DNA of 61,197 nucleotides. It comes from a virus. Of the stretch, positions 1-61,197 are shown in pieces; the first letter of the stretch is position 1, and every line of letters starts with the position of its first letter. A model generated the notes under the pieces. The model was not told the origin of the DNA. It did not search any database and was given only the letters and a program-made list of their open reading frames with translations. The DNA lies in IMG/VR virus record IMGVR_UViG_3300012344_000003, positions 1 to 61,197 of that record. The stretch is one strand, 5' to 3'. Made by a program: the position numbers and the translations under genes.

Positions 1-85
1 CGTGCTTTCTCAGTATCAATGTTCTGCTGCAAAGTAGTATCTGCTGCTTCTCTGCTCTGTGCCTCAGTATCAATGTTCTGCTGCA
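1..85. repeat. Terminal overlap: nt 1-85 are identical to nt 61113-61197 (closed circular or terminally redundant assembly)
   Basis: Both ends compared base by base, 85/85 identical; the overlap lies inside a coding tandem repeat. Confidence 0.9.
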
Positions 86-17000: not shown

Positions 17001-20000
17001 TTGCTGCCTTCTGCAGTGTCTCTTTTGACTGTTCTAGTGCACTTTCTGCAGAGAAGTTCTTAGCAGTGCTTTCTTCTGCAGGGTCTTCATTCCTACTTAT
17101 AGAAGTAGAATTATAGTGCACATAAGCTGCCTGTCCAAGTGTCTGCTGTAGGTAATTTGCAATAGTAATCTTAGGTTCAAGGAAGTATATCTGCGGGCGG
17201 CCCATGAAAGAAAGAGCAGTGTTCCACACAGAATTTGAATCTGGCAGTATATTCTTCATGTCCTTGACATTGAGCTTGTAGTTTGAGAAGTTAACAGCCT
17301 TATATGAAGATGATGCATACTTCACAGCATAATTGTTGTTGAGCTTTATCTCCCTGGCAGTGAAGATGCCCCTATTATACTCGATATGAGAGACAATGGA
17401 AGGTATGTTCTTGCTGATATACCATTGCTGTGAGTCTGTGCCGACAACCATGTCTGTGAGCTGGTAGAGCTCCTCAAGCCTTGAGATATTATAGCTCCTG
17501 TCAGAGAGCTTGCTCAGTGGCTGTACAACACCACTGAAGCCCGCCTGTACAGAGAAGTACTTGGCAGGTATCTCACCTCCAGTCAATGAGCCATTAAGAC
17601 CAACATAGCCATAGCCCTGCATAACACGGACATAACTGCCTATAATAAGTGCCCACTGGTTAAAGTTATTATCAACGTGCACACCAAGTATAAGATTGCC
17701 ATCAACACATGTCGCACTTATCTGTGCCTTGGAGACAGCACTCTCATAGTCCAGGTCAGAGTAAGTATATATCTTGTCAGAGCTGGTATTAAGTGCAGTA
17801 CCAAGCTCACGCTTAGAGAACTGCACATCATACTCTACCATTGACATGTCCTTGAGCGGGTCATACACTTTTATATTAAGGGTGCTGCCAGATACAGACA
17901 GAGTCACAAACTTCGCACTATCCCCTCTGTATGCACATGTGCCTATATACTTGATGACAGATGACGGGAGGTAATCAAACCTGCGCCACTTCTTGACATC
18001 AACAAAAATGTCCCCGTTCCAGTCATCAATGAGCACACCATCATAGCCGCTTATAGCAGATGCCTTGCAGCGCAGGACAAAATGGCTCTTTGTGAGCACA
18101 AGCACATTATCCTTGTCAATCCACCAAAAGTTCTCAGTCTCATTGGTAGTGTCCCACTGCTGCTTAAGGAACTGGAACTCACTCTCAGACTCCAAGTTGG
18201 CAAATGGAATATCCTCAAGCACAGGGCTGTTGACACGTGTATAGCAGAACTGCACATCTGACTTGATATTCTTATTGAACAGGCCCTTGGATGAGATGTC
18301 AATAGCAATCTCCTCACCATTGACAACAGCCTTTATGACAGAAGGCGTGATACTCACAACCTCCATATTGTCAGGGTCATAAATGCCAAGCAGCACAGCC
18401 TGTATTGTCCTTATATCTGAAGATGACAGTGTGAATGAATAATTGTCCCCAAACACCTCATCGGCATCCTGTGCCGGCCCCCACTTCTCCTCAGTGCTGT
18501 CCCATATATAAAGGCCACATTCTGAAGAGCTATAGTTCACCTCAATTTTATATCTGCCTGGCTGCACAAGCACGGCAATGTTATTCTGGAAAGACTCAAG
18601 CTGCAGATAACTGTCAAGAGACTTGGTGCCCTTGAAATGCAGGTCGTAGTCAGCAGAAGTAGTATACTTAACATGGAAAGCATTCACAGGCAGCATAATA
18701 TCTGGGTCATAGCTGTCTATATACTCAAGCTGCATACCTATACTATAGCCAGACTTAAGATAATTTGTAATGACACCTGTACCATCAGGTATGGAACTTG
18801 CTAAGTCATAGTTATACTTAGCGACCTGCTTATCATCAGCAGTAACAATAATCTCCTGGCCCGTAACCTGAATCTGGTCAATATCCCTGCCTGAATCTGG
18901 GTTCAACACTACCTTGAACTTAGGCAAACCTGAGAAATCCCATAAAATGTCAGACTGCAGCTGGTCAGCATACTCCTCAGTAAACTTGTTACCTGAAAGC
19001 AACTCTCCTGCATAGATATTATCAGCAGTCTGTATATAGTTGAACAGAGTCTCACTACTTGTCTGAGCAGCAGCAGCACTTATATTTATAGTAAGGCCAT
19101 ACTCAATATTAATTACACCTATGTAGCTCTTGGCAATAGACAAGGCGCTTATATTACCTGCCTCATAGTCCGTCACTTTCTTTATGTCATTATATAATAT
19201 ATGCCCAGGGCAGACACTGATACTATTATCTGTTGACCTGTTGTCTGTATAGAACAGATAAGTGCTGTTCTCCTTTGCACACAAGTTTATAGTCAAGCTC
19301 AAGTTGCCCTGTGACATGAAAGCACTATTAATCTTATGCCTAAACAGCTCTGAGTAGTACAAAGTATTGGAGCTTGCTGATGGCTCTATCTCGTTAAGCT
19401 GGAAGACAGTAGCATCTAGTGAAGGTGTGAGCAGGCTCTCAGACTTGATGAACAGTTCAGACAGGACATGTGCCATGCAGCACCTGATAAAGCGTGCGGA
19501 GCCAGTAGAACTTGTCCAGTCTTCTATCTTTATGTTATGATTATTATATGATATATTAGGCCCGAGGCTTGAAAGCTGCCCTTTCAGCACAAGGCTGTCA
19601 TCCCGTATAGAGCAGCCTTTCTGTGAGTTTATCACAATTGTAAGGCCACCGCTCTGCCAGAACTTGCTTCCAGAGATGTCAAGCGTCACACCCTGCCATG
19701 TCATTACAGAACCTACAGGATGGTCATCGTCAACTGACCACACAACCTCATTATCCACTGTGATATAGTAGAGATAAATATCTGTCCTGTCATCATGCTG
19801 GTCGAAGAACATGTCACGTATATTGCCCCAGTCATTATATGAGTATGTGCTGTCAAGTGTGACAGAAATCTCTTTTGTAGTGATATGCTCCCTGTGATGA
19901 TTAGTATGGTCCCCTGTATAAGGGTCTGTAGTAATATAGTCATAGTTCTCATATATGCCGAATACAAACTTGACAGTGAAGCCGTTATTGTGGTAGCTTA

Positions 20001-26255: not shown

Positions 26256-28247
26256 CTAAATTCCTATTGCATTCCACAATGCATATCGCATAGCAGGCAG
26301 CAAGTCAGGATGGTAGGCCTTCATGTCTACCTCTGCGTATACCTCACCATTAGGCCCACGCTTCATGATAGTTGACAAAGCCTCATGCTCTGTCTTGCCA
26401 TCGGCAATGAGCAGTAGTCCGCCAGTACGTAGCAAGTCACGTATCTTGTCAAACATAATCACCTTGTCAGTCTTATGTGCATTGGCAATGTTCAGGTCAA
26501 GCTCCTTCTTGCTGCCTGTCTGCTCATCTACATAAGGCATCTTCACATTGATATTCATATAATCTGTGAGGTGCTGGTCATTGTCATCAGCATCCCAGAA
26601 AATGTGCTTGTTTGCCTCTTTCTTGGTCATTGATGGGAAGTAGTCTAGTGCATATTCCCATGCTTTCTTTACCTGCTGCGAGAGGTACTCAAGCTGGGAC
26701 ACTGTCCTGTCCTTTATGTCCAGGCGGTTGAACTTGTCCTCCCAGAACACATATCCACGCTTCTCATCGTCATTCCATGCGATACCGATAAGTGTGTCAT
26801 TATCACCGACACCATAGTCAATGCCGAAGAACACACGCGTAACAGGTATATTTGGAAGTGCCTCACGCGGATTGTAAGTATGAAACTCCGGATAAAGGAG
26901 CAGGTCATCATCATATGCCCATTCACCATTGTACTCACGGCGGGCAAAGCTACTCGACCAGTCAAGGCCCTTGTCAGCAAGCACCTTGTCAACGAACTCC
27001 TTTCTCTTGTCCAAATCAACAGGATGAGGATTGTCCCTCCATGTCCATGAGAAGTGCGGCACGTCCCAGCTCTTCCATACCTGCTCGCCATAAGTGCCTT
27101 TTACCTTTGGTGGTGTACCAGCGCAGACGAACATATAGTCATCTGCATAGTCCATCTGCATAGGCTCAAGAACCTCACGCTGCATGTACTCAAGCAGCTC
27201 ACTCTTCAAGTGGAAGAACTCGTCTATTACAATTACCTTCGCAGCCTTACCACGAATCTGGTCCGGGTCCTTTGTGTTCGACAGGCCTCTTATCAATATG
27301 TTTGAGCCATTGTCAAAATGCTTCCAGTCAAAGCGCATGCCCCTCTTGTTCTTGAGCTGGCACACATCGATGATGTCCTGCGCCGCCTTGTTGACGAGCG
27401 CCTCAGAGAGCTCCATAGTCTCTCCGATATACATTACCTGCGTGCGCGGCTTGCGCAGACACTCAATCATAAGAAGCGCAACAAGCAAATGTGTCTTTCC
27501 AGCACGGCGAGAGCAGCAGATGAGCTTTGTTCCATTTCCAGAGTTCAATACTTCAAGCTGCTTGTCGAACAGCGTCTTTATAATGGCATAGATATTATAT
27601 GCATTGTCATAGTCATACTCAACCTGCTTTGTCTCAGCCGGACGGCCGTCAACACGGTCATGCAGGTAAATGGCAAGGCGTGTGCCGCCCTTCAGTGCGC
27701 GTGCATACATAGCACGCTCGAGTGTGTCCTTGCGGTTCTCACCATCCTTCCTGTATGTGATTGCAAGGTCAGACACCTTCTCAAGCTGCTCCTTTGCCTC
27801 CCTCACCCTTACTTCTATGAGCTTTGTCTGGTTCTTTGACACAGCGTAGCGCTCAACCTCACCGTCCTCACCAGGCATCTCCAAGCCACCTGTAATTGAG
27901 GCACTTGTCAGTAGGTTGTTCCAGTTCGCATAGCTGTTCTCTGCCACACGCAAAGCATATTGCGGGTCATCCTGTACGAATTCCTGCAGTGTCATATTCT
28001 TTGAGCGAGCCACTTCATATACTGAGTCAAACTGTGGCAGAAGCTCAAAGTGCTTGCTATTCTTTACTGGCAGCCTATCATCTGCAGACGGAGAAAAGAG
28101 CATCTTGCGGATGCCAGCTGAAAGTGTCTCTGTCTTGCGGAGGTCATCCTGCTGCTTTGCAACATCCCTGTTGTCCTCTGAGAACTTCCCCCATCCGTCA
28201 TCATCATTTATAATCAAGCTATCTGCGCTCTGAATGTCCTGCATCAC
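26256..28247 (-). CDS. terL: Terminase large subunit
   Basis: 663 aa; Walker A CSRRAGKT, Walker B KVIVIDEF, RNaseH-like nuclease start FFGIDYGVGDNDT. Confidence 0.9.
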   Translation of the reverse strand: MMQDIQSADSLIINDDDGWGKFSEDNRDVAKQQDDLRKTETLSAGIRKMLFSPSADDRLPVKNSKHFELLPQFDSVYEVARSKNMTLQEFVQDDPQYALRVAENSYANWNNLLTSASITGGLEMPGEDGEVERYAVSKNQTKLIEVRVREAKEQLEKVSDLAITYRKDGENRKDTLERAMYARALKGGTRLAIYLHDRVDGRPAETKQVEYDYDNAYNIYAIIKTLFDKQLEVLNSGNGTKLICCSRRAGKTHLLVALLMIECLRKPRTQVMYIGETMELSEALVNKAAQDIIDVCQLKNKRGMRFDWKHFDNGSNILIRGLSNTKDPDQIRGKAAKVIVIDEFFHLKSELLEYMQREVLEPMQMDYADDYMFVCAGTPPKVKGTYGEQVWKSWDVPHFSWTWRDNPHPVDLDKRKEFVDKVLADKGLDWSSSFARREYNGEWAYDDDLLLYPEFHTYNPREALPNIPVTRVFFGIDYGVGDNDTLIGIAWNDDEKRGYVFWEDKFNRLDIKDRTVSQLEYLSQQVKKAWEYALDYFPSMTKKEANKHIFWDADDNDQHLTDYMNINVKMPYVDEQTGSKKELDLNIANAHKTDKVIMFDKIRDLLRTGGLLLIADGKTEHEALSTIMKRGPNGEVYAEVDMKAYHPDLLPAMRYALWNAIGI

Positions 28248-28783
28248 TCAACCACCTCTATATAGCCAACCTGCTTCAGGAGGTCTCTTACAGCCTCCGA
28301 TTTGTCAACAGGCACTTTTATCTTGATAAGCTCATAGCTCTTCGGCTTAGGCATCCTGTTCTGCTTTGGCTTTGTGTACAGGAACTTGATAGCTGGCGCC
28401 TTGTACTCAGGAATCTTCTGGCAGAACCTCACAGCACCTTCCTTGTTTATCTTTCCATAGGAAGATGTAATCTGCAGCAAAGACTTCCTAGCCTGCGCCT
28501 CGTCCTCTGCCTTGATATAAAGGACTGGAAGCGGCTGCTCAGCTACTGTTTTATCCTGCAAAGCTATTTCTGTTAATGCTGCAAGCCGTCCATGGCCGTC
28601 CAAAAGTACATTAAGACCATCTGGGTTATGCCATACAGCGAAAGGCATAATCAGGCCATCAGACAAAATACTGTCTGCAAGCGCCTTGATGTCTTTAGGA
28701 GTGCGCTTCTTAAGGTCACCCTGGAACTCAGTCATTCCGCCCAAAGTAAGAGTGTCCGGTGTCTCACATAAGATTTTAACCAT
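28244..28783 (-). CDS. ParB-like nuclease-domain protein occupying the small-terminase position
   Basis: 179 aa from ATG 28783 (GGAGG 7 nt upstream); ParB N-terminal-like motif VLLDGHGRLAAL; overlaps the terL start by 4 nt; first gene of the minus arm. Confidence 0.55.
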   Translation of the reverse strand: MVKILCETPDTLTLGGMTEFQGDLKKRTPKDIKALADSILSDGLIMPFAVWHNPDGLNVLLDGHGRLAALTEIALQDKTVAEQPLPVLYIKAEDEAQARKSLLQITSSYGKINKEGAVRFCQKIPEYKAPAIKFLYTKPKQNRMPKPKSYELIKIKVPVDKSEAVRDLLKQVGYIEVVE

Positions 28784-28789
28784 TTTCAA

Positions 28790-52055: not shown

Positions 52056-52526
52056 ATGAAGAAAACTAAAGAATGTGAGGTGTATCTTTTTGGCCAGGAG
52101 CAGAAAGATACATTTGGACAGGGAAAAGTAAGACATATTGGCATAAAGCCAGTGTATAAGACAAAAGGAGCTGCAGCAGCAGATATAGCAACACCACTTG
52201 AAGTACATGTACCTCCACATAAGACAGTCAATATTGACCTTTATGTGGGCTTTGACATCCCTGCTGGCTACTGCATAAAGCTCTATCCACGGTCCTCACT
52301 ACTTGTGAAGCGCGGCCTGATACAGCCGGTGTCAATTATTGACCAGGATTTCTCTGGCAACAAGATTCATGCCCCTGTGCATAACCTTACTGATGAAGAG
52401 GTTGTCCTTGAGGCTGGTGAGCGTATCTGCCAGGCAATGCTTGAGCCTGTTATTGACTGCTCTGACTGGGACCATGAGAACAATACACGTGGAGCTGCCG
52501 GCTTTGGCACTACAGGAACATGCTGA
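52056..52526 (+). CDS. dut: dUTPase (trimeric type)
   Basis: 156 aa with all five motifs: GAAAADI, PRSS, IIDQDFSG, GERICQ, RGAAGFGTTG. Confidence 0.85.
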   Translation: MKKTKECEVYLFGQEQKDTFGQGKVRHIGIKPVYKTKGAAAADIATPLEVHVPPHKTVNIDLYVGFDIPAGYCIKLYPRSSLLVKRGLIQPVSIIDQDFSGNKIHAPVHNLTDEEVVLEAGERICQAMLEPVIDCSDWDHENNTRGAAGFGTTGTC

Positions 52527-53263
52527 TGAACTTAAATACTAGGATTTACAGGCAGGCACTGCAGAAGATAGCAGACTATCCATGCAAAAAGAACCCGCAC
52601 GGCATTACTTTCGAGTATCTGGCATTCAGGACAGAGTTTGAGCCGGAGGGCCATATTGCAGGGAGCTCTGAGAAGTACATAAAGAACGAACTAGACTGGT
52701 ACCTGTCGCAGGACAGGAACATCAAGGGGCACCCAGGGATTGAGAGCAACAAAGTATGGCAGTCATGTGCTGCTGCTGATGGCTCAGTGAACAGCAATTA
52801 TGGCTGGTGTATCTTCAGCAAGGAGAACTATGAGCAATTTGAGATGGCCTGCAGGAGTATTGAGAAAGACCCAAGCACGAAGCAGGCTGTCATGGTATAC
52901 ACGAGACCAGCTATAAATATAGAATGGAATGACGGTGAGCATGCTGAGCATGATATGGTCTGTACAATCTATGTAAACCTGCTGCTCCGTGAAGGCAAGC
53001 TCATATATATCGTGCACATGCGGAGTAATGATATATGGTATGGTCTACGCAATGACCTTGCATGGCACCAGTTTGTAATGAAGCGGGTAGTTGAATGGTT
53101 GAATGGGCATGATATAAAGTGCACCCCGCTCAAGATAATATGGAATGCTGACTCAATGCACCTGTATGAGAGGAACATTGAGGACGTGAAGAAGTGGCTT
53201 GAGGCGAACGACGGCTTTGATGAGCCTTTTGAAGACACTCTGCTGTCAAGCATGCTAAAATAA
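52520..53263 (+). CDS. Deoxycytidylate (dCMP) hydroxymethylase-like enzyme (ThyA superfamily, T4 gp42-like)
   Basis: 247 aa; NELDWY, VNSNYGWCIF, catalytic Cys in DMVCT, HMRSNDIWYGLRNDLAWHQF (Asp after RN), IIWNADSMHLYERN; compared with T4 gp42 from memory. Confidence 0.75.
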   Translation: MLMNLNTRIYRQALQKIADYPCKKNPHGITFEYLAFRTEFEPEGHIAGSSEKYIKNELDWYLSQDRNIKGHPGIESNKVWQSCAAADGSVNSNYGWCIFSKENYEQFEMACRSIEKDPSTKQAVMVYTRPAINIEWNDGEHAEHDMVCTIYVNLLLREGKLIYIVHMRSNDIWYGLRNDLAWHQFVMKRVVEWLNGHDIKCTPLKIIWNADSMHLYERNIEDVKKWLEANDGFDEPFEDTLLSSMLK

Positions 53264-53268
53264 AAACA

Positions 53269-53290
53269 GGGCCTCCATTGCTGGAGGCCC
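53269..53290. terminator. Shared convergent terminator hairpin GGGCCTCCA-TTGC-TGGAGGCCC
   Basis: 9-bp perfect stem in the 37-nt gap where the two arms meet (stops at 53263 and 53301). Confidence 0.7.
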
Positions 53291-53300
53291 TTCACTATGC

Positions 53301-53765
53301 CTAGAAATTCTTTTTGGCTATCCGTAAAACGAGGTCCTGCCACCTCTCACGGTCTACATAATACTCAGGGCACTTTTTTCCTGTCCAGTCATAATGCCTT
53401 ATAACTGGGAGGGCAGGGAGTGTAGCAATCAGCTCCTTGAGGGTATCAATGCTCTTCTCACTGAACTGTCCTTCCTTGTTATATGGGATAACTTCAATAC
53501 CAATGCTTGACTCGTTGCCTGCCTTGTTCCCGCAGTGCCATGCTACCTTGTTCAGTGGCCAGCATTGCAAGACCTCATCATCTTTTACAATGAAATGTGC
53601 AGACGCTTCACCTGGTGATACACACCAGTAGTCACGCACATCAGCAGGTGTCTGTCCTGGGAAAGGCCCTGTCCAGTGCACTGTTATAGTGTCTGGCCAT
53701 TTCTTGAACCATAGCTTTGTGTCGCAGCTGTTCCCATCTGGTATATAGTTAATCCTTAGCTTCAT
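53301..53765 (-). CDS. N-acetylmuramoyl-L-alanine amidase endolysin (Amidase_2/PGRP type)
   Basis: 154 aa; TVHWTG, SAHFIV, WHCGNKAGNESSIGIEV, RHYDWTGKKCP. Confidence 0.85.
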   Translation of the reverse strand: MKLRINYIPDGNSCDTKLWFKKWPDTITVHWTGPFPGQTPADVRDYWCVSPGEASAHFIVKDDEVLQCWPLNKVAWHCGNKAGNESSIGIEVIPYNKEGQFSEKSIDTLKELIATLPALPVIRHYDWTGKKCPEYYVDRERWQDLVLRIAKKNF

Positions 53766-54433
53766 ATTCCTGCGGCCTCCAGCCGCTGTTTGATAGCAGC
53801 AATCTCACTTTTGTTCTGGCAAGGCTGTCCGCTACTTCCATGTTCAAGTGCATCAAGCCTTGAGAAGATTTCTGCAAATGGACCTGACTTATTATTCCAC
53901 TGCTCAGTAATACTGATAAGCTGCTGGTTTATGGTAACTTCACCACTTTCAGGAAGCTCTTTGACAATATCTTTTATCTTCTCTTCAAGCTCCTTGGTAT
54001 CATAGCCAAGTGCTTTGAGCTTGTCAATCTCAGCATAGAGAGTGCTCTCATCAGCCTTTGTTCCTGCAAGAGCAGTAACATCTGCACGTAAGTTGAGCAT
54101 ATCTGCTTTTATTGAAGCCACATCTGTAGAAGCAATGACTTCAAGCATCTTATTCTCAAGGTTAGTACAGCGCTTTTTGAGGTTCACAATAGCCTGCTGC
54201 ACTTCCGTGTCGTCATAGTCTGTTCCGGGGTAAGTGATTCCCTGCAAATCTTTGACACTCTGCTTGAGGTCATTGATATTGCTCCTGATTTCTGTCAGGT
54301 CAGCTTCAGGAACGCCACCATTCTCAAGAATAGTTATGCGTTCTATGAGCTGCTTGACGTCTGTCTGTTTTTTTTTGTAGTAGGCTTTCCAGTCCCCATC
54401 GCCACCTGCTGCTGAATACTGCGGATATGCCAT
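53762..54433 (-). CDS. Coiled-coil hypothetical protein (lysis/late cassette)
   Basis: 223-aa ORF with a 4-nt overlap with the amidase start. Confidence 0.55.
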   Translation of the reverse strand: MAYPQYSAAGGDGDWKAYYKKKQTDVKQLIERITILENGGVPEADLTEIRSNINDLKQSVKDLQGITYPGTDYDDTEVQQAIVNLKKRCTNLENKMLEVIASTDVASIKADMLNLRADVTALAGTKADESTLYAEIDKLKALGYDTKELEEKIKDIVKELPESGEVTINQQLISITEQWNNKSGPFAEIFSRLDALEHGSSGQPCQNKSEIAAIKQRLEAAGI

Positions 54434-54434
54434 G

Positions 54435-55067
54435 TTATTTGTCCTTTAGCAGTCCAAGTGCGTCACCTTTTACAAGCCATGAGATGCCGAATGCTACAAG
54501 CATGATGAGCTCAGCGACAAATGTCTTTGAAGGTGACTTGACTGGGAGCACCATCCAGAGCATAGGTACAAGCATAGCTATTGCACACGCTACATAAATC
54601 TTGTTGCGCATTTTCTTCTGCTTTGTCATCTCGCCATTATGTTGTGTAAACAGGAAAGCGCTGTTGAATGCTAGTAATATAAAGAAGCAGCAGGCACTTA
54701 TATTATGTATAACTGCTGATACTTTAGCAGGCAGCATGAAGAAGCCTACATAGTCCCTCGCTAGTACACAGTTACATGGGAATAGCACAATAAGCAGGCC
54801 GAACACACCAGAAATAGTAGTAACCAGGTTGTCAACCTTTCCATATCCATCATAGGTCATGAGCACAATTGATGCTGCAGTGAGCACAGCAGCAAGAGCA
54901 GGTGTCATGTAGTATGTCGCACTGATTGACAATTTGCTCCAGAATCCTTCTGGAACTGGGTAATGGAGCCGGTACAGGCCCGCGCCAACTGCTGCCAGGA
55001 TAGGGAGCAGCATTCCAAGCAGTCCGCAGATATTGCGGATTCTCTTGTACATCTTCTTTTCGTTCAT
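54435..55067 (-). CDS. Polytopic membrane protein (about 6 TM)
   Basis: 210 aa made of successive hydrophobic helices; lies inside the lysis cassette. Confidence 0.6.
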   Translation of the reverse strand: MNEKKMYKRIRNICGLLGMLLPILAAVGAGLYRLHYPVPEGFWSKLSISATYYMTPALAAVLTAASIVLMTYDGYGKVDNLVTTISGVFGLLIVLFPCNCVLARDYVGFFMLPAKVSAVIHNISACCFFILLAFNSAFLFTQHNGEMTKQKKMRNKIYVACAIAMLVPMLWMVLPVKSPSKTFVAELIMLVAFGISWLVKGDALGLLKDK

Positions 55068-55282
55068 CTTGATTCCTCCGTCTTGTTTCTTGTTATGAAC
55101 TTGTCGAGCATGATGTTCATGTCGATTGTCCCCGCTACGATGCCATAAGCTGTGAGGTAGCAGATTATTATTCCGCTTGTCTCAGCACCTGGCAGAAGTC
55201 CTTTCCACTTATAATAGAAAGTCACAACGAGTGCAGCGCTAAGTAGCACTTTGCTCAGTTTTGAAATAATCTTTGCTGTCAT
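55064..55282 (-). CDS. Holin-like protein (2 TM, charged C-terminus)
   Basis: 72 aa; VLLSAALVVTFYY and GIIICYLTAYGIVAG helices with tail RNKTEESR; ATGA overlap with the upstream ORF. Confidence 0.5.
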   Translation of the reverse strand: MTAKIISKLSKVLLSAALVVTFYYKWKGLLPGAETSGIIICYLTAYGIVAGTIDMNIMLDKFITRNKTEESR

Positions 55283-55740
55283 AGTAGTATATCAAGCCAC
55301 CGTGGCAGCCTGATTCCTTTAAGGTAGAATGCATATCCGACAACTGTTGTGCAGATGCGGATAATCACGATACATAGTAGTATGTTAAGGGTCCTGTTCT
55401 TGTCCTTCAGTTTCTGCTCGTATTTGCTTATAGTCAGATATGAACTGTTCAACGACTCGTTGATACTCGTCAAAGAGATTGATAACATCTTCGACTGTTG
55501 TTTCAGTTTTTGCTGCTCTAAGTCTGAGGTCTTCAAGCTGGCTGATAGTTCTATCAGCTGTTGCTTCATAAATTCGGACTCTGTCTTCAAGTCTTGTAAT
55601 TTGCTCTTGATGAGCGAGGATGTCTGATTGAGCACCTGCTCCCTGTCTTGGCATGCTTGAGCATCCTGTGCAAATACAGGCACTAGCAAGCAGAAAGACA
55701 AAAAAAGCAGGGCACTTTGTAATACTAGCTTTTTGCACAT
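55279..55740 (-). CDS. Membrane/coiled-coil protein (N-terminal signal-like helix plus C-terminal TM), frame A of a dual-frame region
   Basis: 153 aa; AGGAGG 4 nt upstream of the ATG; its stop is coupled (ATGA) to the holin-like gene. Confidence 0.5.
   Translation of the reverse strand: MCKKLVLQSALLFLSFCLLVPVFAQDAQACQDREQVLNQTSSLIKSKLQDLKTESEFMKQQLIELSASLKTSDLEQQKLKQQSKMLSISLTSINESLNSSYLTISKYEQKLKDKNRTLNILLCIVIIRICTTVVGYAFYLKGIRLPRWLDILL
55385..55738 (-). CDS. Alternative-frame ORF: lipoprotein-like coiled-coil protein (frame B), embedded in 55279-55740
   Basis: 117 aa from GTG 55738 (same AGGAGG, 6 nt upstream). KCPAFFVFLLASACICTGCSS looks like a signal/lipobox, followed by a varied, charge-rich (E/D/R/T) helical sequence. 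The ORF track starts it at ATG 55774. Confidence 0.35.
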   Translation of the reverse strand: MQKASITKCPAFFVFLLASACICTGCSSMPRQGAGAQSDILAHQEQITRLEDRVRIYEATADRTISQLEDLRLRAAKTETTVEDVINLFDEYQRVVEQFISDYKQIRAETEGQEQDP

Positions 55741-56114
55741 AGTGCCTCCTTTTTAATCTGCTGGATATATACATCTATATATGAGTTGCCGCCTTTGGCT
55801 TTATACTCATCATACAGTTTCAGCTTTGCATGGAAATCTGTCTTGTCAGACATAATCTGCAGGCGTATAGTTGCGAGCTCAATAGCATGTATAGTGTCCA
55901 GCATTATTTTTGTACTGACCTGCAGCTCAGCGACATCCTTCTTGAGGCTGTCAATCTGTGCTGAGTCAATAAAGCTGCGGTTGAACTTAATCCCATCCTT
56001 GCCTATGCTTCCAATCTCACCACGCCGCATCATAGCAGTTATGGTGTAGATTACAAGGAGCAGGCATATAAGCAGGACAGGACTGCTATTAAGTTGTGTT
56101 AATATATCATTCAT
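55725..56114 (-). CDS. N-terminally anchored membrane protein
   Basis: 129 aa; TM helix PVLLICLLLVIYTITAMM; first gene of the lysis cassette. Confidence 0.55.
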   Translation of the reverse strand: MNDILTQLNSSPVLLICLLLVIYTITAMMRRGEIGSIGKDGIKFNRSFIDSAQIDSLKKDVAELQVSTKIMLDTIHAIELATIRLQIMSDKTDFHAKLKLYDEYKAKGGNSYIDVYIQQIKKEALCAKS

Positions 56115-58506
56115 AATCTTCTACATAGTTGCTTAATGTGAGACATTTTTCACATGCTTCTGCTTTGTAATATTTTGCAGGGTTGCTGAAGTCAAATTCA
56201 TTTATGTCAACTTCTGTTCCTGCAAAGTAGTTACAGCATGGAAGGACCTTGCCTGTTATGCAGTCAATCTGTATTGCGCCAAATTTTTTAGGGCACTGAC
56301 TACGTGCTGCAATAAAAGCTTTTTGTTGTATAATATTAATAAGCTTTGGTGAAGTCCAGTCTATAAGCGCATATTCTCTTACAAACTGTGCCAACTTTAC
56401 AAGCTCCTCTTCACCAAGGTCAAAATCAGCATTTCCTGTATTCATGCACGGGATAAGCTGGAAGCTGTTTTTAACAAGTTTTTTATTGCTCTCAAGCCAC
56501 TGCTCTATTTCTGGCAGCTGGTTTTTAGTAGCAACATATACTGTGAGGTCTGGCTTTTTGAGCTCCTTTATGAGCTCTGCTGCCTGCTCCAGTGTCATGG
56601 CATGCACATTCTTTACAATATTAGGATATGTATAAAGAGGAGCTTCTTTGTCATAACCATTTGTAAATAGCATAATCATCGGGTACTCTTTAAGGCGCTT
56701 GATAATCTTAATCTGTGTCTCATATGAGAGCAGTGTAGGCTCACCGCCAAGGAGCTGTGGGAACACTTTTACTCCGTAGGCTTCTTCAGCTTTTGTGAGG
56801 TACCTGTCAAAGTTCTCATAGATAGTATCTTCATCAATATTCTCAGCCTTAAGCTGGTTGCAGTAGGCACAGTTCTTGTTGCATGTCCTGTTGAGTGAGA
56901 ATGTAACATATCTTGTAGATTTTTGTGTATATTTTGATATTATTGGTTTATTGATATTCACTACGATGTCTTTCAACGTATCTTGCAGTCTGTGTATAAA
57001 TACTTCTTTAATTTTATATATAGTAGTATATCTTTTAGTATCTAAAAGAAGCATATCTTCTGTCCCAGGATTATTGCCTAGTGTTAATATACAGTACTTA
57101 TCAAGCATATATATCAAGCGCTCGAGCCATGTCTTGTCAAGCGCCATTATCTCATCAAGGATTTTGTTGTTTATAATCAGGTTGCCTTGTCGCTCAAAAA
57201 TGTCGCAGGGGCTTGTCTCAGAGATGTCATTGAACATGAGCACATCAAACTCAGTGCCCTCAAGGTCAAGCCCTTCTGGGACTTTGCCTATTACTGTGAA
57301 TCTGTCTTTTGAATACTGCTCAAGCGGCTTGCGTATGCGGGACTCTTTGAACATGTCTGTTACTATGTTGTATATACTGTTATTAAAAGTCTCTATGATT
57401 GTGTCTACAGCTGAGCAGCTATTAAGCATGTGTATATAAGCATTGTCATAGCTATTATCTAGTAGTATTTCCTGCATAAGTATATCTAAAGTCTTATTTG
57501 AATAGTAATTAGGAAGTCCCTGTATATATCTATAGAGCTTAGGCAGTACATATTTTGTAATAGTATATTTCCAATTTTCACTGGCATATATCTCATGGCT
57601 GAGCGAGTTCTCAGTGCTCAAGAAATATTTGAACTTAGGCTCATTATGAAAATAGAAACTATATTTTGCGTCACAAGCTACATCTGTCAAGAAAGCAGTG
57701 TCCTCGCCAGAAGAATTACAGTCAGGATTGAACTGATAATCCTTCATCACGTCACTATGACAGATGAAAGAGCCAGTGCCAGATATACGTGAACCAAATT
57801 TGATAAATATAGGATTATTAAACTGTGCATATAGCTTATTATTATTAGTAAGATTTATTACATCCATTTTACAGCGCCGTATAGCAGCATTAACTTTATT
57901 AGGCTCATCACCTTTAAGGAGCACTTCGAAATAATCAGGATAAAGCTGGTCATCAGCATCAAGGAACATAAGCCACTCACTGTCAGCAAGAGTAGCAAGG
58001 TAGTTACGTGCTTCTTCAACGCAGAGGCGTTCATGCTCTCTGCAGTCAATAATACTGCTCATTGATGAGAGCTCATCTTTAAGTGCAATTGAGTCTTCAT
58101 CCATGAGTAGTATTATAATCTTGTCTGGGAGCAGAGTATTTGCAAGGACACTTTCTACAGTGTCCTTTATATATTTAGCCTTTCCATAGCATGGGACAAG
58201 CACAGTAAGCTTCTGGCCTTCCTTATACTTATATCTATCTCCGTATATACAGGTTCCTGTTGGTAAATATACATAAGAAATAATAGAATCTAAAAGAAAC
58301 TTGACTATATTATAGCGCTCTAAATTTTTTGAAATATCAGCTACTTCTTTTTTAGGGTAGTCTCTGAACTGATATTCCCATTCAGAGCCATTCCACCGAC
58401 AGCTCTCACCTTCTCTAAGAGGCTTATGGGGAGCCTCAATGCCTGCTATCTCTTCACAGAAGCTTCTGCCTGTGATATTACCGTCTTTGTCTATAATATA
58501 TTTCAT
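56107..58506 (-). CDS. Fusion protein: GT2-type glycosyltransferase plus radical-SAM/SPASM domain
   Basis: 799 aa. GT-A core LTVLVPCYGKAKYIKDTVESVLANT..LLMDEDS..FLDADDQLYP. Radical-SAM motif CNKNCAYC (nt ~56860-56885) plus GGEPTLL. Cys-rich tail CPKKFGAIQIDCITGKVLPCCNYF..ACEKC. Confidence 0.75.
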   Translation of the reverse strand: MKYIIDKDGNITGRSFCEEIAGIEAPHKPLREGESCRWNGSEWEYQFRDYPKKEVADISKNLERYNIVKFLLDSIISYVYLPTGTCIYGDRYKYKEGQKLTVLVPCYGKAKYIKDTVESVLANTLLPDKIIILLMDEDSIALKDELSSMSSIIDCREHERLCVEEARNYLATLADSEWLMFLDADDQLYPDYFEVLLKGDEPNKVNAAIRRCKMDVINLTNNNKLYAQFNNPIFIKFGSRISGTGSFICHSDVMKDYQFNPDCNSSGEDTAFLTDVACDAKYSFYFHNEPKFKYFLSTENSLSHEIYASENWKYTITKYVLPKLYRYIQGLPNYYSNKTLDILMQEILLDNSYDNAYIHMLNSCSAVDTIIETFNNSIYNIVTDMFKESRIRKPLEQYSKDRFTVIGKVPEGLDLEGTEFDVLMFNDISETSPCDIFERQGNLIINNKILDEIMALDKTWLERLIYMLDKYCILTLGNNPGTEDMLLLDTKRYTTIYKIKEVFIHRLQDTLKDIVVNINKPIISKYTQKSTRYVTFSLNRTCNKNCAYCNQLKAENIDEDTIYENFDRYLTKAEEAYGVKVFPQLLGGEPTLLSYETQIKIIKRLKEYPMIMLFTNGYDKEAPLYTYPNIVKNVHAMTLEQAAELIKELKKPDLTVYVATKNQLPEIEQWLESNKKLVKNSFQLIPCMNTGNADFDLGEEELVKLAQFVREYALIDWTSPKLINIIQQKAFIAARSQCPKKFGAIQIDCITGKVLPCCNYFAGTEVDINEFDFSNPAKYYKAEACEKCLTLSNYVEDYE

Positions 58507-58523
58507 ACTTTGCTCCTATTATA

Positions 58524-59363
58524 TTATTCTGTGAATGCAAATACCCTGACCACAGCACCTGTATCACTACCTGCTGAGCCGCCATTTACTCCTGAACCAG
58601 CTGCACCATTGCCAGCAGCTCCGCCAGAGCCAAAAGAGCCATAGGCAGTTTCTAAATATACTGACATATCACCACAACCATTATGCATTCCTGCTCCAGG
58701 ACCAGGACAGCTTCTATAATAAGACAAAGAACCTCTGCCTCCGCCTCCGCCACCGCCACCATAGGCATTAATAGTCTGCCCTGTAAGGTCAAGCTTTGCC
58801 CTTGTCCCTCTTCCACCAGCTCCACCAGCAGTAGCATTAGTAGATGTAGGGTCATATTGATAACATGTATGGTATGGACTAGTACTTTGAGAACTACATC
58901 TAAAAGAACGATGTGTAGTATTAGTGCCGGCAGTACCAGCAGAACCATTGTTCACACCAATAGTAACATGGAGCACCGTGTCACTTAGCAATGCTCCAAA
59001 GTACATGCTATCACTGGAGCCTCTTCCGCCAGCACCATAGGAACTTACACCTGGCTCTCCATAGCAGGTTACTTTTCCTCCAAGAGGAAACAGGTCCTTG
59101 CTGAGTGTTACATCCTGTGTTGTAGAGTACTCAGCAATCAGCTTTAGATTAGGAATATCATCAGCATACTCACAGACGTCCTGTGCACCTGCTGCTGTCT
59201 GCACTTTCATGACAGCAGGGCCAGATATACTTGTTCCTGAGCCTGCATAAAGAATTTCATTTTCAGTAGTCTTTACTGCTACCACGTTCTTTGACCGCTT
59301 CGTGGAGTAGAGCCTCACAAAGCGGTTATTGCCTTTGCTGTCCCTTATCTTGATGTATTTCAT
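58524..59363 (-). CDS. Glycine-rich, Cys-containing tail/fibre-associated protein
   Basis: 279 aa; runs AGGRGSSD, AGGAGGRGT, YGGGGGGGGRGS, SGGAAGNGAAGSGVNGGSAGSD; 7 Cys; lies between the fibre gene and the GT2-rSAM gene. Confidence 0.6.
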   Translation of the reverse strand: MKYIKIRDSKGNNRFVRLYSTKRSKNVVAVKTTENEILYAGSGTSISGPAVMKVQTAAGAQDVCEYADDIPNLKLIAEYSTTQDVTLSKDLFPLGGKVTCYGEPGVSSYGAGGRGSSDSMYFGALLSDTVLHVTIGVNNGSAGTAGTNTTHRSFRCSSQSTSPYHTCYQYDPTSTNATAGGAGGRGTRAKLDLTGQTINAYGGGGGGGGRGSLSYYRSCPGPGAGMHNGCGDMSVYLETAYGSFGSGGAAGNGAAGSGVNGGSAGSDTGAVVRVFAFTE

Positions 59364-59366
59364 GTC

Positions 59367-60740
59367 TTATCCCTCAATCCATGCTGAGCCGACCTGAATA
59401 TCTGCCGGAGCCCCGACAGGAAGGACCATGAAGATAGAATCTGAGATAGACACTTCCTGCCAGGTAACTGCACCATCTGTAACTGTAGCAGAATAGTAGC
59501 GCTTTGTGCCTCTTACATAGGCAAGCTGGCCAGTATATATTGTGACACTTATATTAGGGTCTTTCTGCACAGAAGGGAGCTCATCCTGTGTGTCATATAC
59601 AAGGAACACATGTCGTGTGATATTTGACTCAGCCTTTGTGGCACGTGTAGTCTCTTTCAAGATGGCATTGCTTATCTTGCCCTCTTCCTGCGAGGCACGT
59701 GTAGTCTCAGCCTGTATAGCATCTGCATTTGCCTCTTCAGCAGCCGATGCGCGGCCAGTCTCTGTTGAGAGGGCAGCCTTTATCTCGTCTTCTTCTGCTA
59801 TTGCGCGTGCCTGCTCTTTGTCAATGTTCTGCTGGAGCAGCATCTCAGCATCAGTTGCGCGTATTGTTTCTTTTCCGAGCAGCTCCTCAAGCTGGGCTTC
59901 TGCTGCCTCAGCGCGTGCCTTCTCAGTGTCCTCTGCTCCTGTTGCGCGTGCTACTTCTGCCTCAAGGTCAGAAGTAAGCTTGTCTTCAGCAGCTGTGGCG
60001 CGCTCTTCTTCAGCAGTGTCAGCGTCCCCGCGTGCCTGGGCTTCTTTATCAATGTTCTGCTGGAGTAGTGCCTCAGCGTCCTTTGCGCGTGTGCTCTCTT
60101 CTGTAAGAGCAGCATTTATTTCATTTTCTTTACTTTCAGCACGCTCACTCTCACTGAGCACAGCATTACTGATGTCATGCTCAGTCTCCTGTGCACGGAG
60201 CACTTCCTTGTCAAGGTTCGCCTGAACAAGCTGCTCAGCGTCAGTAGCACGCTTCACTTCTGCTGCAAGGTCAGCAGTGAGCTTTTCCTCTGCAGCTGTG
60301 GCACGTGCCTCTTCACCTTCAATGTTATTCTGAAGAGCAGCATCACCTGCCTCACGGAGCGGAGGCTCCTTGTCAATCTCTTCCTTAAGCTTTGCTTCTA
60401 CTTCTTCTGCACGCTTCTGCTCATCAGCAACAGCAGTGCTGTAAGAGTCAATGCGTCCGCTGAGGTTGCTTTCTGCCTCTTCAGCACGCGCCTGTTCTTT
60501 GTCAATGTTCTGCTGCAGCTTCTCGTCAGCTGCCTCACGGAGCGGAGGCTCAAGTGCAATCTCATCACTGAGAGCAGTATCTGCTGCATCACGTTCCTGC
60601 GCTTCTTTATCTATGTTTTCCTGGAGTACTTTCTCAGCTGCAAGTGCGCGCTCTTTTTCAGCGACTGCACTCTCATTGCTGAAGCGCTCTTCCACTTCCT
60701 CAGCGGAATAAAAATTCACATTATCTAAAAGCTTGTACAT
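59367..60740 (-). CDS. Coiled-coil tail fibre protein
   Basis: 457 aa; at least 8 repeats of the LQQNIDKEAQAR / ExxRAxxAE type, then a short beta-like C-terminus (VFLVYDTQDELP..). Confidence 0.7.
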   Translation of the reverse strand: MYKLLDNVNFYSAEEVEERFSNESAVAEKERALAAEKVLQENIDKEAQERDAADTALSDEIALEPPLREAADEKLQQNIDKEQARAEEAESNLSGRIDSYSTAVADEQKRAEEVEAKLKEEIDKEPPLREAGDAALQNNIEGEEARATAAEEKLTADLAAEVKRATDAEQLVQANLDKEVLRAQETEHDISNAVLSESERAESKENEINAALTEESTRAKDAEALLQQNIDKEAQARGDADTAEEERATAAEDKLTSDLEAEVARATGAEDTEKARAEAAEAQLEELLGKETIRATDAEMLLQQNIDKEQARAIAEEDEIKAALSTETGRASAAEEANADAIQAETTRASQEEGKISNAILKETTRATKAESNITRHVFLVYDTQDELPSVQKDPNISVTIYTGQLAYVRGTKRYYSATVTDGAVTWQEVSISDSIFMVLPVGAPADIQVGSAWIEG

Positions 60741-60750
60741 CTAGTGCTCC

Positions 60751-60984
60751 TTATGCTGGCTGCTGCTCAGCCTGTTCTTGTGGTTGCTCTTGTTCCTGGC
60801 CCTGTCCGTCCTGCTGTACAGCCTCAGAAGTGTTACCTACTGTAAGCTGTCCAGCAGCTTGCTTGATTATGCTACGGAGCCAGATTGAGTAATTGTCAGC
60901 GAGTGATTCCGGGATGTCATCCTTTCTTTGCAGGTGCTCTTCCCACACCCGTTTTATTATGTCATTCTGCTCCTGCTTAGTCAT
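60751..60984 (-). CDS. Small protein between the two fibre genes (candidate fibre assembly factor)
   Basis: 77 aa, GGAG SD, Q/E-rich tail; the role is inferred from position only. Confidence 0.45.
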   Translation of the reverse strand: MTKQEQNDIIKRVWEEHLQRKDDIPESLADNYSIWLRSIIKQAAGQLTVGNTSEAVQQDGQGQEQEQPQEQAEQQPA

Positions 60985-60994
60985 AGCATGCTCC

Positions 60995-61197
60995 TTAGTT
61001 TCCGTCAGGGTGAATATCAGTTATGCGGTCAGAGAGAGCCTGTTCAGCTTCTGTCGCACGGCTTGTCTCCTTGACAATGTCTGCAGCATTCTTGTCCTCA
61101 GCAGCCTCAGCACGTGCTTTCTCAGTATCAATGTTCTGCTGCAAAGTAGTATCTGCTGCTTCTCTGCTCTGTGCCTCAGTATCAATGTTCTGCTGCA
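60995..61197 (-). CDS. 3' end of the wrapped fibre gene (same gene as 1-2525)
   Basis: Frame continuity checked across the overlap (nt 1 = 61113); ends ...ALSDRITDIHPDGN then TAA at 60997-60995, followed by the SD of the next gene. Confidence 0.8.
   Translation of the reverse strand, partial: QQNIDTEAQSREAADTTLQQNIDTEKARAEAAEDKNAADIVKETSRATEAEQALSDRITDIHPDGN
61113..61197. repeat. Right copy of the 85-nt terminal overlap
   Basis: Identical to nt 1-85. Confidence 0.9.

Follow-up and report, generated by a model that had tools for sequence, protein, structure and literature searches.

What would a bacteriophage do with a glycosyltransferase fused to a radical S-adenosylmethionine (radical-SAM) enzyme, and on what substrate would such a protein act? 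The question is raised by a 799-residue enzyme encoded on the minus strand of IMGVR_UViG_3300012344_000003, a viral assembly of 61,197 nt that was analyzed at its full length and is referred to here as the window (positions are window coordinates throughout, and residue numbers are those of the 799-aa enzyme unless its partner is named). Directly upstream of the enzyme gene lies the gene for a 279-aa glycine-rich protein, hereafter the partner. The answer that we prefer, quite possible but short of probable as judged from sequence, is that enzyme and partner make up a two-gene cassette, the role of the enzyme being to modify the partner, a putative fiber-tip adhesin, after translation.

The open reading frame (ORF) itself is as initially annotated, with an AGGAG ribosome-binding site 7 nt upstream of its ATG, and the motifs quoted for it in that annotation are all found where they had been placed, namely LTVLVPCYGKAKYIKDTVESVLANT at residues 100–124, LLMDEDS at residues 133–139, and WLMFLDADD, which contains the DADD of the glycosyltransferase, together with the cluster-binding and tail motifs that are listed in Table 1; chance falls far short of explaining them. 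Genes for exactly this 799-aa protein occur on at least 23 independent contigs, many of them ~61 kb in length and with the same neighbors, and the ORF is therefore neither an assembly artifact nor a pseudogene. Homologues are found at 96% identity, at ~72–75% (in the same ~61-kb phage family), and at 59%, 54%, and 23–31%. Across 19 fusion homologues, down to 23% identity, the glycosyltransferase retains without exception D136, D183, D185, D186, and E268/D269, the radical-SAM core retains C542/C546/C549, G587 to T591, N616, and H635, and the tail retains C738, C749, C757, C785, and C788, with C758 nearly so; A184 of the DADD motif is also invariant in this alignment and nearly so in a second one. 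Both catalytic centers are therefore under selection, and both catalytic cores are, by these alignments, intact and conserved. An AlphaFold model of the enzyme (mean predicted local distance difference test, pLDDT, of 76; predicted TM-score, pTM, of 0.68) is confident for both catalytic domains. The sequence carries neither a signal peptide nor a membrane segment.

The N-terminal catalytic domain is assigned to glycosyltransferase family 2 (GT2), with a GT-A fold, on the strength of both profile and structural comparisons. Pfam Glycos_transf_2 (PF00535) matches residues 101–247 with E=7.1e-16 and 59 bits, versus a cut-off of 23.3, and the model has pLDDT values of 90–97 over residues 100–190. 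When the whole enzyme model is compared with the PDB by Foldseek, GT2 matches fill the list, with 5hea at the top, followed by TarP (6h2n), TarS (5tz8), and RmlT (8bz7); the Foldseek probability is 1.00 for TarP, TarS, RmlT, SpsA, and 5hea, at 12–18% identity. TarP, TarS, RmlT, and 5hea, which are the best matches both in Foldseek and by PDB sequence, share with the enzyme a GT2 domain of GT-A fold with a DxD motif; unlike the enzyme, they have no radical-SAM domain and no N-terminal module, and they carry other C-terminal oligomerization or acceptor-binding domains. TarP is prophage-encoded, and 5hea (GalT1/CgT, an SRR-adhesin glycan transferase) acts on a protein-linked glycan.

The C-terminal half belongs, by profile comparison, to the radical-SAM superfamily. 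Pfam Radical_SAM (PF04055) matches residues 539–619 with E=3.3e-7 at 31.1 bits, only just above the cut-off of 29.5. Using hhalign, this half aligns to SPASM-containing radical-SAM proteins with a probability of 98.8% over 81 columns, running from CX3CX2C through GGEPT to TNG, and its profile finds only radical-SAM enzymes in the PDB, over the first ~100 positions (8vpo, GDGT/MAS synthase, YydG, viperin, LAM, SuiB, CteB, MoaA, and SkfB). In the model, residues 533–686 form alternating β and α elements with pLDDT ~80–93. The initial annotation had allowed that the C-terminal half might fall outside this superfamily, or that its cysteine triad might vary among relatives; the hhalign probability and the invariance of the triad speak against both. 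The fusion of the two enzyme classes is thus confirmed, each membership by Pfam, that of GT2 also by Foldseek, and that of the radical-SAM domain also by hhalign. NCBIfam yields only sub-threshold matches, the N-terminal half finding an assortment of GT2 enzymes and the C-terminal half finding MoaA, HxsC, TrsS, and viperin; the HxsC model TIGR03977, for example, scores 21.9 bits versus a cut-off of 267.9. Stand-alone radical-SAM relatives of the enzyme likewise match no named NCBIfam family, giving only sub-threshold matches to HxsC, viperin, and MoaA. Beyond the enzyme's own clade, the matches are all to generic radical-SAM proteins and do not extend past the cluster-binding N-terminus; because the similarity is confined to that part, the class of substrate is not readable from the relatives.

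The radical-SAM core is followed by a cysteine-rich tail with the pattern C-x10-C-x7-CC-x26-C-x2-C, which had initially been described as SPASM/twitch-like. That description does not hold: neither PF13186 nor TIGR04085 matches (at E<=0.1 for Pfam and E<=1 for NCBIfam), the CX2CX5CX3C motif of a canonical SPASM domain is absent, and the hhalign alignment covers the core only, with the tail outside it. The tail probably binds an auxiliary Fe-S cluster, as a clade-specific domain. The single unassigned block of ~330 residues in the initial domain map is, moreover, two separate regions, of ~95 residues at the N-terminus and ~240 in the middle. The first of these begins with a conserved, clade-specific N-terminal module, for which three diverse N-termini find no Pfam or PHROG match at E<=10 and a 22-sequence profile finds no PDB match; a resemblance to tail-fiber-assembly domains (Tfa/DUF4376-like) was considered and set aside, being unsupported by Pfam, PHROGs, or the PDB profile. 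The middle region, detected only in long-form enzymes, is similarly devoid of Pfam or PHROG relatives at E<=10 and of PDB relatives by profile search.

The size of the family was gauged by an exhaustive search of 1.84 billion representative proteins with a profile of the radical-SAM half, which returns 55 proteins at E<=1e-30, a number that rises to 101 at E<=1e-10. Of the top-ranked representatives, 74 were examined: 31 carry both the N-terminal module and the GT2 domain, as long-form enzymes generally do, and are 660–834 aa in length, 15 have the GT2 domain minus the module, as short forms do, and the remainder are stand-alone proteins of ~250–300 aa or have other architectures. The GT2-radical-SAM fusion is thus represented by about 46 clusters at 50% identity, and a scan of JGI metagenomes adds one further fusion locus (L141). 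Related fusions occur in Clostridiales, Ruminococcus, and Treponema metagenome-assembled genomes (MAGs) from rumen and gut. In four loci (L011, L013, L014, and L061), the GT2 and radical-SAM proteins are encoded by separate genes a few kb apart, which we refer to as the split form. Gene contexts were examined for seven long-form lineages out of the ~46 family representatives, and it is to these that the following comparison applies.

In every long-form locus examined, a glycine-rich ORF of 279–351 aa lies directly upstream of the enzyme gene on the same strand. These loci make up the seven lineages (the window; L001; L002/L003/L004 with L138; L005; L006/L007/L010 with L220/L221; L008; and L141), the enzymes of which are only 25–41% identical to one another. 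The distance between the partner and enzyme genes ranges from a few-base overlap (L002, L005, L008, and L138) to 17–18 nt, with a maximum of 66 nt by the called start of L001. A hidden Markov model (HMM) built from five partner proteins and run against all ORFs of the window and of 61 loci finds only these upstream ORFs and the C-terminal 180 residues of a 1153-aa protein in L008, and gives no match in short-form or split-form loci. BLASTP reveals the homology of partners from different lineages only in part, which is why an HMM was required: the window partner finds that of L005 at E=6e-9 and that of L001 at 0.002, and does not find that of L002. The reverse test gives the same picture. Starting from four distant homologues of the partner, the enzyme is the next gene in both of the contigs that continue (L220 and L221), and the other two contigs end there. 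An HMM of the N-terminal module, in turn, matches nine of ten long-form loci and none of three short forms. Upstream fiber-like genes are partly common to the lineages and downstream genes are not, and the conserved unit is therefore exactly the partner plus the enzyme.

The partner is associated with fiber genes. L138 is a prophage within a 1.08-Mb bacterial scaffold, in which the pair follows a sheath/tube initiator, Baseplate_J, a 359-aa ORF, and a 594-aa ORF, with genes for a membrane protein, a CI-like repressor, and an integrase coming after it; this is the classical place for the tail-fiber genes of a contractile-tail phage. In L219, L220, and L222, a gene for a Phage Tail Collar protein lies just upstream, and in L008 the partner is residues 951–1129 of the 1153-aa protein, forming the C-terminal tip of what is otherwise a fiber-like repeat protein.

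A further comparison is provided by L228 (IMGVR_UViG_3300029947_000005), a 58-kb viral contig that represents a syntenic sister phage, with identities to the window of 84% for the DNA polymerase, 76% for the primase-like protein, 69% for the dUTPase-like protein, and 59% for both the hydroxymethylase and the endolysin. Here, in the stretch L228 11972–16521, the lysis genes are separated by four small unrelated ORFs from a homologue, 885 aa in length, of the 457-aa fiber protein. The syntenic region of L228 has no HMM match to the partner, the GT2 domain, or the N-terminal module and no radical-SAM gene, nor was any fusion match found on this contig in the viral scan. The enzyme and partner are thus absent together, and the hydroxymethylase pathway persists without the enzyme. 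Across deep divergence, then, the two genes are linked, and they are gained or lost together. Within the window, they also share a low GC content at third codon positions (0.37 for the enzyme and 0.32 for the partner, versus 0.43–0.58 in the other genes tabulated, with a genome GC of 0.455), a compositional signature consistent with joint horizontal acquisition. The L228 fiber homologue is about twice as long as its window counterpart (885 vs 457 aa) where the window has partner plus enzyme, and its arrangement suggests an alternative receptor-binding solution reached by a module swap.

The partner was noted from the outset as a cysteine-containing glycine-rich ORF, and it is indeed that, with 18% Gly and six Cys. 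It is far more variable than the enzyme: clustered at 90% identity, the partners of the ~61-kb phage family form more than 110 groups, versus ~15 for the enzyme. The variation is concentrated: over 60 close homologues, column entropy is 0.3–0.6 bits in the Gly-rich motifs versus 1.9–2.0 bits in partner residues 151–175 and 216–240. The cysteines within these two hypervariable segments are equally spaced (C156-x10-C167 and C219-x10-C230), and conservation in the phage family reaches 90% or more for C156, C167, and C219. The partner model has a mean pLDDT of 71; its core (partner residues 70–220) is mostly at 75–95, the Gly stretches 102–116, 136–152, and 171–186 are confident with no assignment to α or β structure, and residues 242–270 are mostly of low confidence. 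No Pfam, PHROG, or PDB sequence match is found for the partner. Pfam Gly_rich_2 (PF21722) matches 3 of 65 partner homologues, with a best E=0.0098, and does not match the window protein. By structure, the best Foldseek matches in the PDB are all to the ALK/LTK glycine-rich domain and are weak (E 0.03–0.3, TM-score ~0.2). Among the viral models of BFVD, the partner resembles phage “glycine-rich domain-containing” proteins (E down to 6e-6, TM-score 0.2–0.3) and, also at low TM-scores, Gp38 of Synechococcus phage syn9 (E=4.8e-4), cyanophage virion structural proteins, and several tail proteins. We conclude that the partner is a putative fiber-tip protein of receptor-binding type, belonging to the phage glycine-rich-domain fold class as far as matches of such low TM-score indicate, and not a demonstrable homologue of Gp38.

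Taken together, these observations may be cast as a mechanism. The enzyme and its partner would constitute a mobile two-gene cassette of the tail-fiber module, in which the partner is the distal, receptor-binding fiber tip, its Gly-motif scaffold, probably of the polyglycine-II type, displaying two hypervariable Cys-bracketed loops. The enzyme would be a cytoplasmic, late-expressed, bifunctional maturase of this tip. Its N-terminal module, a candidate docking module, and possibly its middle region would bind a conserved part of the partner, whereupon the GT-A/GT2 domain would transfer a sugar from a nucleotide-sugar by way of the DxD-bound metal. The radical-SAM [4Fe-4S] cluster and SAM would generate a 5'-deoxyadenosyl radical, aided by the auxiliary-cluster tail, and this radical would initiate, by hydrogen abstraction, a step whose site would be either the sugar (attached or donor) or the Gly-rich backbone (at Cα) or Cys side chains of the partner, where it might form a crosslink, for example. 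The modified tip would then be assembled onto the fiber. That the partner is the substrate and that the N-terminal module docks onto it we infer, as we do all of the chemistry. In its fullest version, that anaerobe phages of gut and rumen carry a dedicated maturase of their receptor-binding protein, which docks on a polyglycine-type tip, glycosylates it, and performs radical chemistry on it (e.g., a Cα/thioether crosslink or an unusual sugar), the proposal has a substantial, though less than even, chance of being right and would then make the pair a genuinely new class.

What speaks for modification of the partner is, beyond strict adjacency, that a single conserved enzyme is paired with many loop variants, which is easier to reconcile with an enzyme that recognizes a constant scaffold than with one that recognizes a variable host receptor, and that the N-terminal module is present only in the long forms, i.e., the forms with a partner. 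Other observations weigh against it. From one lineage to another, the partner keeps neither its Cys positions nor most of its residues other than Gly; no RRE or other known substrate-binding domain is detected in the N-terminal or middle regions of the enzyme (the RRE being the PqqD-type recognition domain of peptides that are made on the ribosome and modified after translation, RiPPs; Pfam at E<=10 and PDB profiles); many phage glycine-rich-domain proteins apparently exist without such an enzyme; and the nearest structures to the GT2 domain are teichoic-acid glycosyltransferases (TarP, TarS, and RmlT), not proven protein glycosyltransferases. Short-form fusions and split GT2/radical-SAM genes, furthermore, occur with no partner, and the coupling of GT2 to radical SAM is therefore in itself independent of the partner. 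The synteny, finally, also fits a co-inherited pair of an adhesin and a receptor-modifying enzyme. The proposal in the initial annotation that the enzyme acts on the adjacent Gly-rich protein thus gains substantial comparative support, from the seven-lineage cassette, from the reverse search, and from joint absence in the sister phage; its more particular suggestion of a thioether crosslink finds no support, as the Cys positions of the partner vary between lineages. The neighbor conservation among related contigs that the same annotation had called for is what the seven lineages provide.

The main competing explanation takes up that last point against the partner as substrate. The enzyme would glycosylate and radically tailor the teichoic acid, capsule, or S-layer glycan that is the adhesin's own receptor, thereby blocking superinfection or the loss of progeny on cell debris, and enzyme and adhesin would together be a specificity cassette. 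Adhesin-adjacent genes for receptor masking are known in phages, an example being llp of T5 beside the pb5 gene, and the wall-teichoic-acid glycosyltransferases TarP, TarS, and RmlT as best structural matches point in the same direction, as does the lack of a signal peptide or membrane segment, a feature shared with TarS and TarP. The L138 cassette, too, at the boundary of the tail and lysogeny modules beside a CI-like repressor and an integrase, occupies a typical position for lysogenic conversion. The window phage, however, looks virulent, since it encodes a DNA polymerase, a helicase, and a primase-like protein of its own and the ORFs scanned include no integrase; its enzyme gene is co-transcribed with late fiber and lysis genes, and the few-base overlaps of partner and enzyme in L002, L005, L008, and L138 suggest coupled late expression. 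A receptor-specific enzyme would also be expected to co-vary with its adhesin, and yet this one is conserved while the adhesin loops run to more than 110 variants, with an N-terminal module whose presence correlates with that of the partner. We regard envelope modification as unlikely on balance. Alternatively, the radical-SAM domain could make an unusual nucleotide or nucleotide-sugar donor for the GT2 domain, the acceptor being a small molecule or some other virion protein, with linkage to the partner a matter of shared inheritance. GT2 and radical-SAM proteins remain coupled, whether fused or neighboring, where both partner and N-terminal module are missing, which points to a metabolite common to both activities, the simplest candidate being a sugar intermediate; it is for this reason that we give weight to sugar-directed radical chemistry above and keep a non-partner acceptor as a separate possibility. 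The weak nearest radical-SAM relatives include MoaA, viperin, and BlsE, which act on nucleotides or sugars, and short forms also adjoin fiber-like Tail Collar proteins. On the other hand, those relatives equally include the protein and peptide maturases HxsC, YydG, SuiB, CteB, and SkfB, and both the strict adjacency of the partner and its correlation with the N-terminal module are left unexplained. This alternative strikes us as decidedly unlikely.

The initial annotation had also raised the alternative that the enzyme carries out a step of DNA hypermodification, in which GT2 would glycosylate 5-hydroxymethylcytosine and the radical-SAM domain would tailor the sugar or the base. The T4-type dCMP hydroxymethylase that it recognized in the window is well founded (PDB 1b49 at E=2.6e-43, versus ~1e-4 for true thymidylate synthases), and its ORF overlaps one for a dUTPase/dCTP-deaminase-like protein; the phage thus probably replaces C by 5-hydroxymethylcytosine. 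When the early and middle ORFs of the window were concatenated and compared with the PDB, no other glycosyltransferase, T4-type α- or β-glucosyltransferase, or dNMP kinase was recognized, only the single-stranded DNA-binding protein (SSB) being matched, and the hydroxymethylase and enzyme genes are only ~3 kb apart. This proximity is incidental, however, since it arises because two oppositely oriented arms, carrying their genes on opposite strands, meet at a terminator common to both. In the sister phage L228, the dUTPase-like and hydroxymethylase pair is kept (69% and 59%), with no GT2, radical-SAM, or partner gene in the syntenic region, and the cassette is tied to fiber genes in unrelated phages, including the tail-fiber slot of a temperate prophage. 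Late co-transcription with fiber and lysis genes is atypical of DNA-modification genes. Known glucosyltransferases of hydroxymethylcytosine DNA, such as those of the T-even phages, moreover have a GT-B fold, in contrast to the GT-A/GT2 fold of the enzyme domain, and no T4 glucosyltransferase is among its PDB matches. A role in DNA modification is accordingly disfavored and appears to us highly improbable.

If the enzyme does act on its partner, the pair would combine features of several known systems. The closest parallel for the partner is the Gp38 adhesin of T-even phages (S16/T2 type), a protein of ~260–280 aa encoded beside the fiber gene, in which conserved Gly-rich motifs alternate with hypervariable segments of receptor specificity and an N-terminal non-Gly part attaches to the fiber (PMC12032242). 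The partner has the same layout of motifs and hypervariable segments, along with the structural match to syn9 Gp38 at low TM-score; it differs in that no sequence homology to Gp38 was found (by Pfam, PHROGs, PDB sequences, or GenBank phages) and in its two hypervariable segments with a Cys pair in each, as opposed to four segments in Gp38, which for its part has no dedicated modifying enzyme. In mycobacteriophages, glycosyltransferases encoded by the phage are thought to act on its own structural proteins, according to the statement for which PMC12801897 cites Freeman et al. 2023 (see also PMC11256854). There, as here, glycosyltransferase genes lie in or near the structural module, but these are stand-alone enzymes with no radical-SAM partner, no Gly-rich adhesin, and no sequence relationship to the enzyme by tblastn. 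The targets of this mycobacteriophage glycosylation are reportedly capsid and tail-tube proteins. On the radical-SAM side, the HXS system (HxsB/HxsC) of bacteria carries out radical-SAM maturation of a repeat-containing effector (PMC13128918). Such maturases (HxsB/HxsC, YydG, SuiB, CteB, and SkfB), besides being weak best matches to the enzyme, likewise have a gene beside that of a repeat-containing protein or peptide substrate; the window enzyme, on the other hand, scores far below the family cut-offs and has no SPASM motif and no detected RRE-type domain, while the maturases lack a glycosyltransferase fusion. Nor does the pair resemble a RiPP-type maturase system, in which the precursor is a short leader-core peptide, the putative substrate here being a structural protein of 279–346 aa. 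GT2 and radical-SAM enzymes do act on one metabolite in mycofactocin (MftC/MftF) and hopanoid (HpnI/HpnJ) biosynthesis, as separate bacterial proteins with cofactor or lipid substrates; the MftF model matches the enzyme at E=0.17 only.

In the searchable literature, we found no account of any GT2-radical-SAM fusion that is linked to a fiber protein of a phage. While the domains are known, what is new is their architecture, the tail that is not SPASM, and the company of a fiber-tip protein. Receptor-binding proteins determine which hosts a phage can infect and are what phage engineering mainly targets, and the two adjacent genes are a directly testable pair. Were the partner confirmed as substrate, it would be the first case of radical-SAM post-translational modification of a virion protein, and the enzyme would define a new GT2-radical-SAM class that has a non-SPASM Cys tail and acts on a large, folded structural protein and not on a peptide. 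It would also add a new layer of phage-host specificity in phages of anaerobes, for if a fiber tip needs an oxygen-sensitive maturase, its binding would not be predictable from sequence alone, and heterologous or aerobic production of such fibers would fail. If the host envelope is the target instead, the pair would represent a new type of adhesin-linked receptor-masking system.

Table 1. Positions in the window of the enzyme, its predicted domains and motifs, the partner, and the neighboring genes and signals discussed in the text (res, residues of the protein concerned).
Feature	Position	Strand	Basis or remarks
799-aa GT2-radical-SAM fusion enzyme	56107..58506 (stop included)	-	ATG start
N-terminal module, res 1-58	58333..58506	-	consensus M.Y.I...G...G.S....KPL..E.A.WNG..WEY.F; only in long-form fusions
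GT2 (GT-A fold) glycosyltransferase domain, res 95-290	57637..58224	-	Pfam PF00535, Foldseek
DxD metal/nucleotide-sugar motif DADD, res 183-186	57949..57960	-	D183, D185, D186 invariant
Middle region, res 291-530	56917..57636	-	mostly helical with a small β sub-domain (model); conserved block KESR.RKPLE.YSKD.F..IG..PE.L.L.G.EFDVL.
Radical-SAM core, res 531-730	56317..56916	-	PF04055, hhalign, PDB profile
CX3CX2C motif CNKNCAYC (C542, C546, C549), predicted ligands of the SAM-binding [4Fe-4S] cluster	56860..56883	-	invariant
GGEPT, res 587-591, “GGE” SAM-binding motif	56734..56748	-	invariant
Cys-rich C-terminal tail (C738, C749, C757, C758, C785, C788)	56110..56316	-	clade-specific, not canonical SPASM
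279-aa Gly-rich partner, putative fiber-tip adhesin and proposed substrate	58524..59363	-	18% Gly, 6 Cys
Partner hypervariable segment 1, partner res 151-175, with C156 and C167	58839..58913	-	entropy ~2.0 bits
Partner hypervariable segment 2, partner res 216-240, with C219 and C230	58644..58718	-	entropy ~1.9 bits; low-pLDDT loop
457-aa coiled-coil fiber-like protein, upstream of partner	59367..60740	-	phrog_13589 E=2e-25
Lysis region downstream of cassette	53301..55740	-	Amidase_2 endolysin, 223-aa coiled-coil ORF, membrane-protein ORFs
Amidase_2 endolysin	53301-53765	-	Pfam/PHROGs
Membrane-protein ORFs of lysis region	54435-55067, 55064-55282, 55279-55740	-	
Intrinsic terminator	53268..53291	-	closes late unit after endolysin; sole minus-strand terminator-like site in 53000-61197
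T4-type dCMP hydroxymethylase	52520-53263	+	PDB 1b49 E=2.6e-43
dUTPase/dCTP-deaminase-like ORF	52056-52526	+	overlaps hydroxymethylase ORF

The cassette is embedded in the late arm of the genome. This arm, on the minus strand, begins with the large terminase (26256–28247), runs to position 1, resumes at 61197, and ends at a terminator past the endolysin, its last part comprising, in order, the 457-aa coiled-coil fiber-like ORF, the 279-aa Gly-rich ORF, the enzyme, small and membrane-protein ORFs, and the endolysin. A terminator scan finds no minus-strand terminator between the fiber, partner, enzyme, and lysis genes. The initial annotation had placed the enzyme in a late “virion/lysis module”; its location in the late arm stands, while for the “virion” part we infer membership from position, namely the same strand and unit as the terminase-led arm, between a fiber-like ORF and the lysis genes. 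The plus-strand arm encodes a helicase, a primase-like protein, an SSB, a family-A DNA polymerase, a dUTPase-like protein, and the T4-type dCMP hydroxymethylase. Between the convergent hydroxymethylase and endolysin genes, at 53264–53300, lies a perfect GC-rich hairpin, GGGCCTCCA-TTGC-TGGAGGCCC, which probably acts as a terminator in both directions, serving the replication arm as well as the late arm.

The first 85 nt of the window are identical to its last 85 nt, within a 54-nt tandem repeat, so that the assembly closes on itself and is circular or terminally redundant (window 1–140 and 61113–61197). Several independent ~61-kb assemblies are broken at this same junction, probably owing to the 54-nt repeat. 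A repeat-rich ORF on the minus strand crosses the junction; its homologue in the sister phage L228 is 823 aa long (L228 16755–19226).

Apart from the terminase, no large late ORF of the structural arm has a Pfam or PHROG match. Ten large ORFs of this arm (2877–26219, minus strand), including one of 2409 aa at 14089–21318, are without any such match, and the virion of this widespread ~61-kb phage family is made of unrecognized protein families. Among GenBank phages, no relatives were found of the enzyme (tblastn against 50,697 phages), of the partner, or of 21 kb of window DNA, and no tRNA genes are present in the window. Just upstream of the terminase, a 181-aa ORF (28244–28789, minus strand), in the position of a small terminase subunit, has a weak partial match to a DNA methyltransferase PHROG (E=9.7e-7).

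The partner-free members of the family have neighborhoods of their own. Short-form fusions adjoin fiber-like Phage Tail Collar proteins in terminase-portal regions, and here, too, the surroundings point to virion proteins. In L059 (64–5715) and L058, from Ruminococcus and Clostridiales MAGs, the short-form fusion is followed by a paralogous 294-aa radical-SAM gene and, further downstream, by genes for a terminase, a Phage Tail Collar protein, and a protein resembling Peptidase_C39, a family otherwise linked to leader-peptide processing. In the split-form loci (L011 1278–6759, and also L013, L014, and L061), the GT2 gene directly follows that of a reverse transcriptase (RVT_1, E=4.5e-15), and the stand-alone radical-SAM gene follows those of an SSB and a 92-aa ORF with 6 Cys. 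L015 (5995–12801), finally, encodes a 456-aa homologue that has the N-terminal region and GT2 domain and no radical-SAM domain, and next to it comes an ORF, at least 1800 aa in length, whose 139 Cys and numerous GGxGG motifs make it a possible further target protein of Gly/Cys-rich type.

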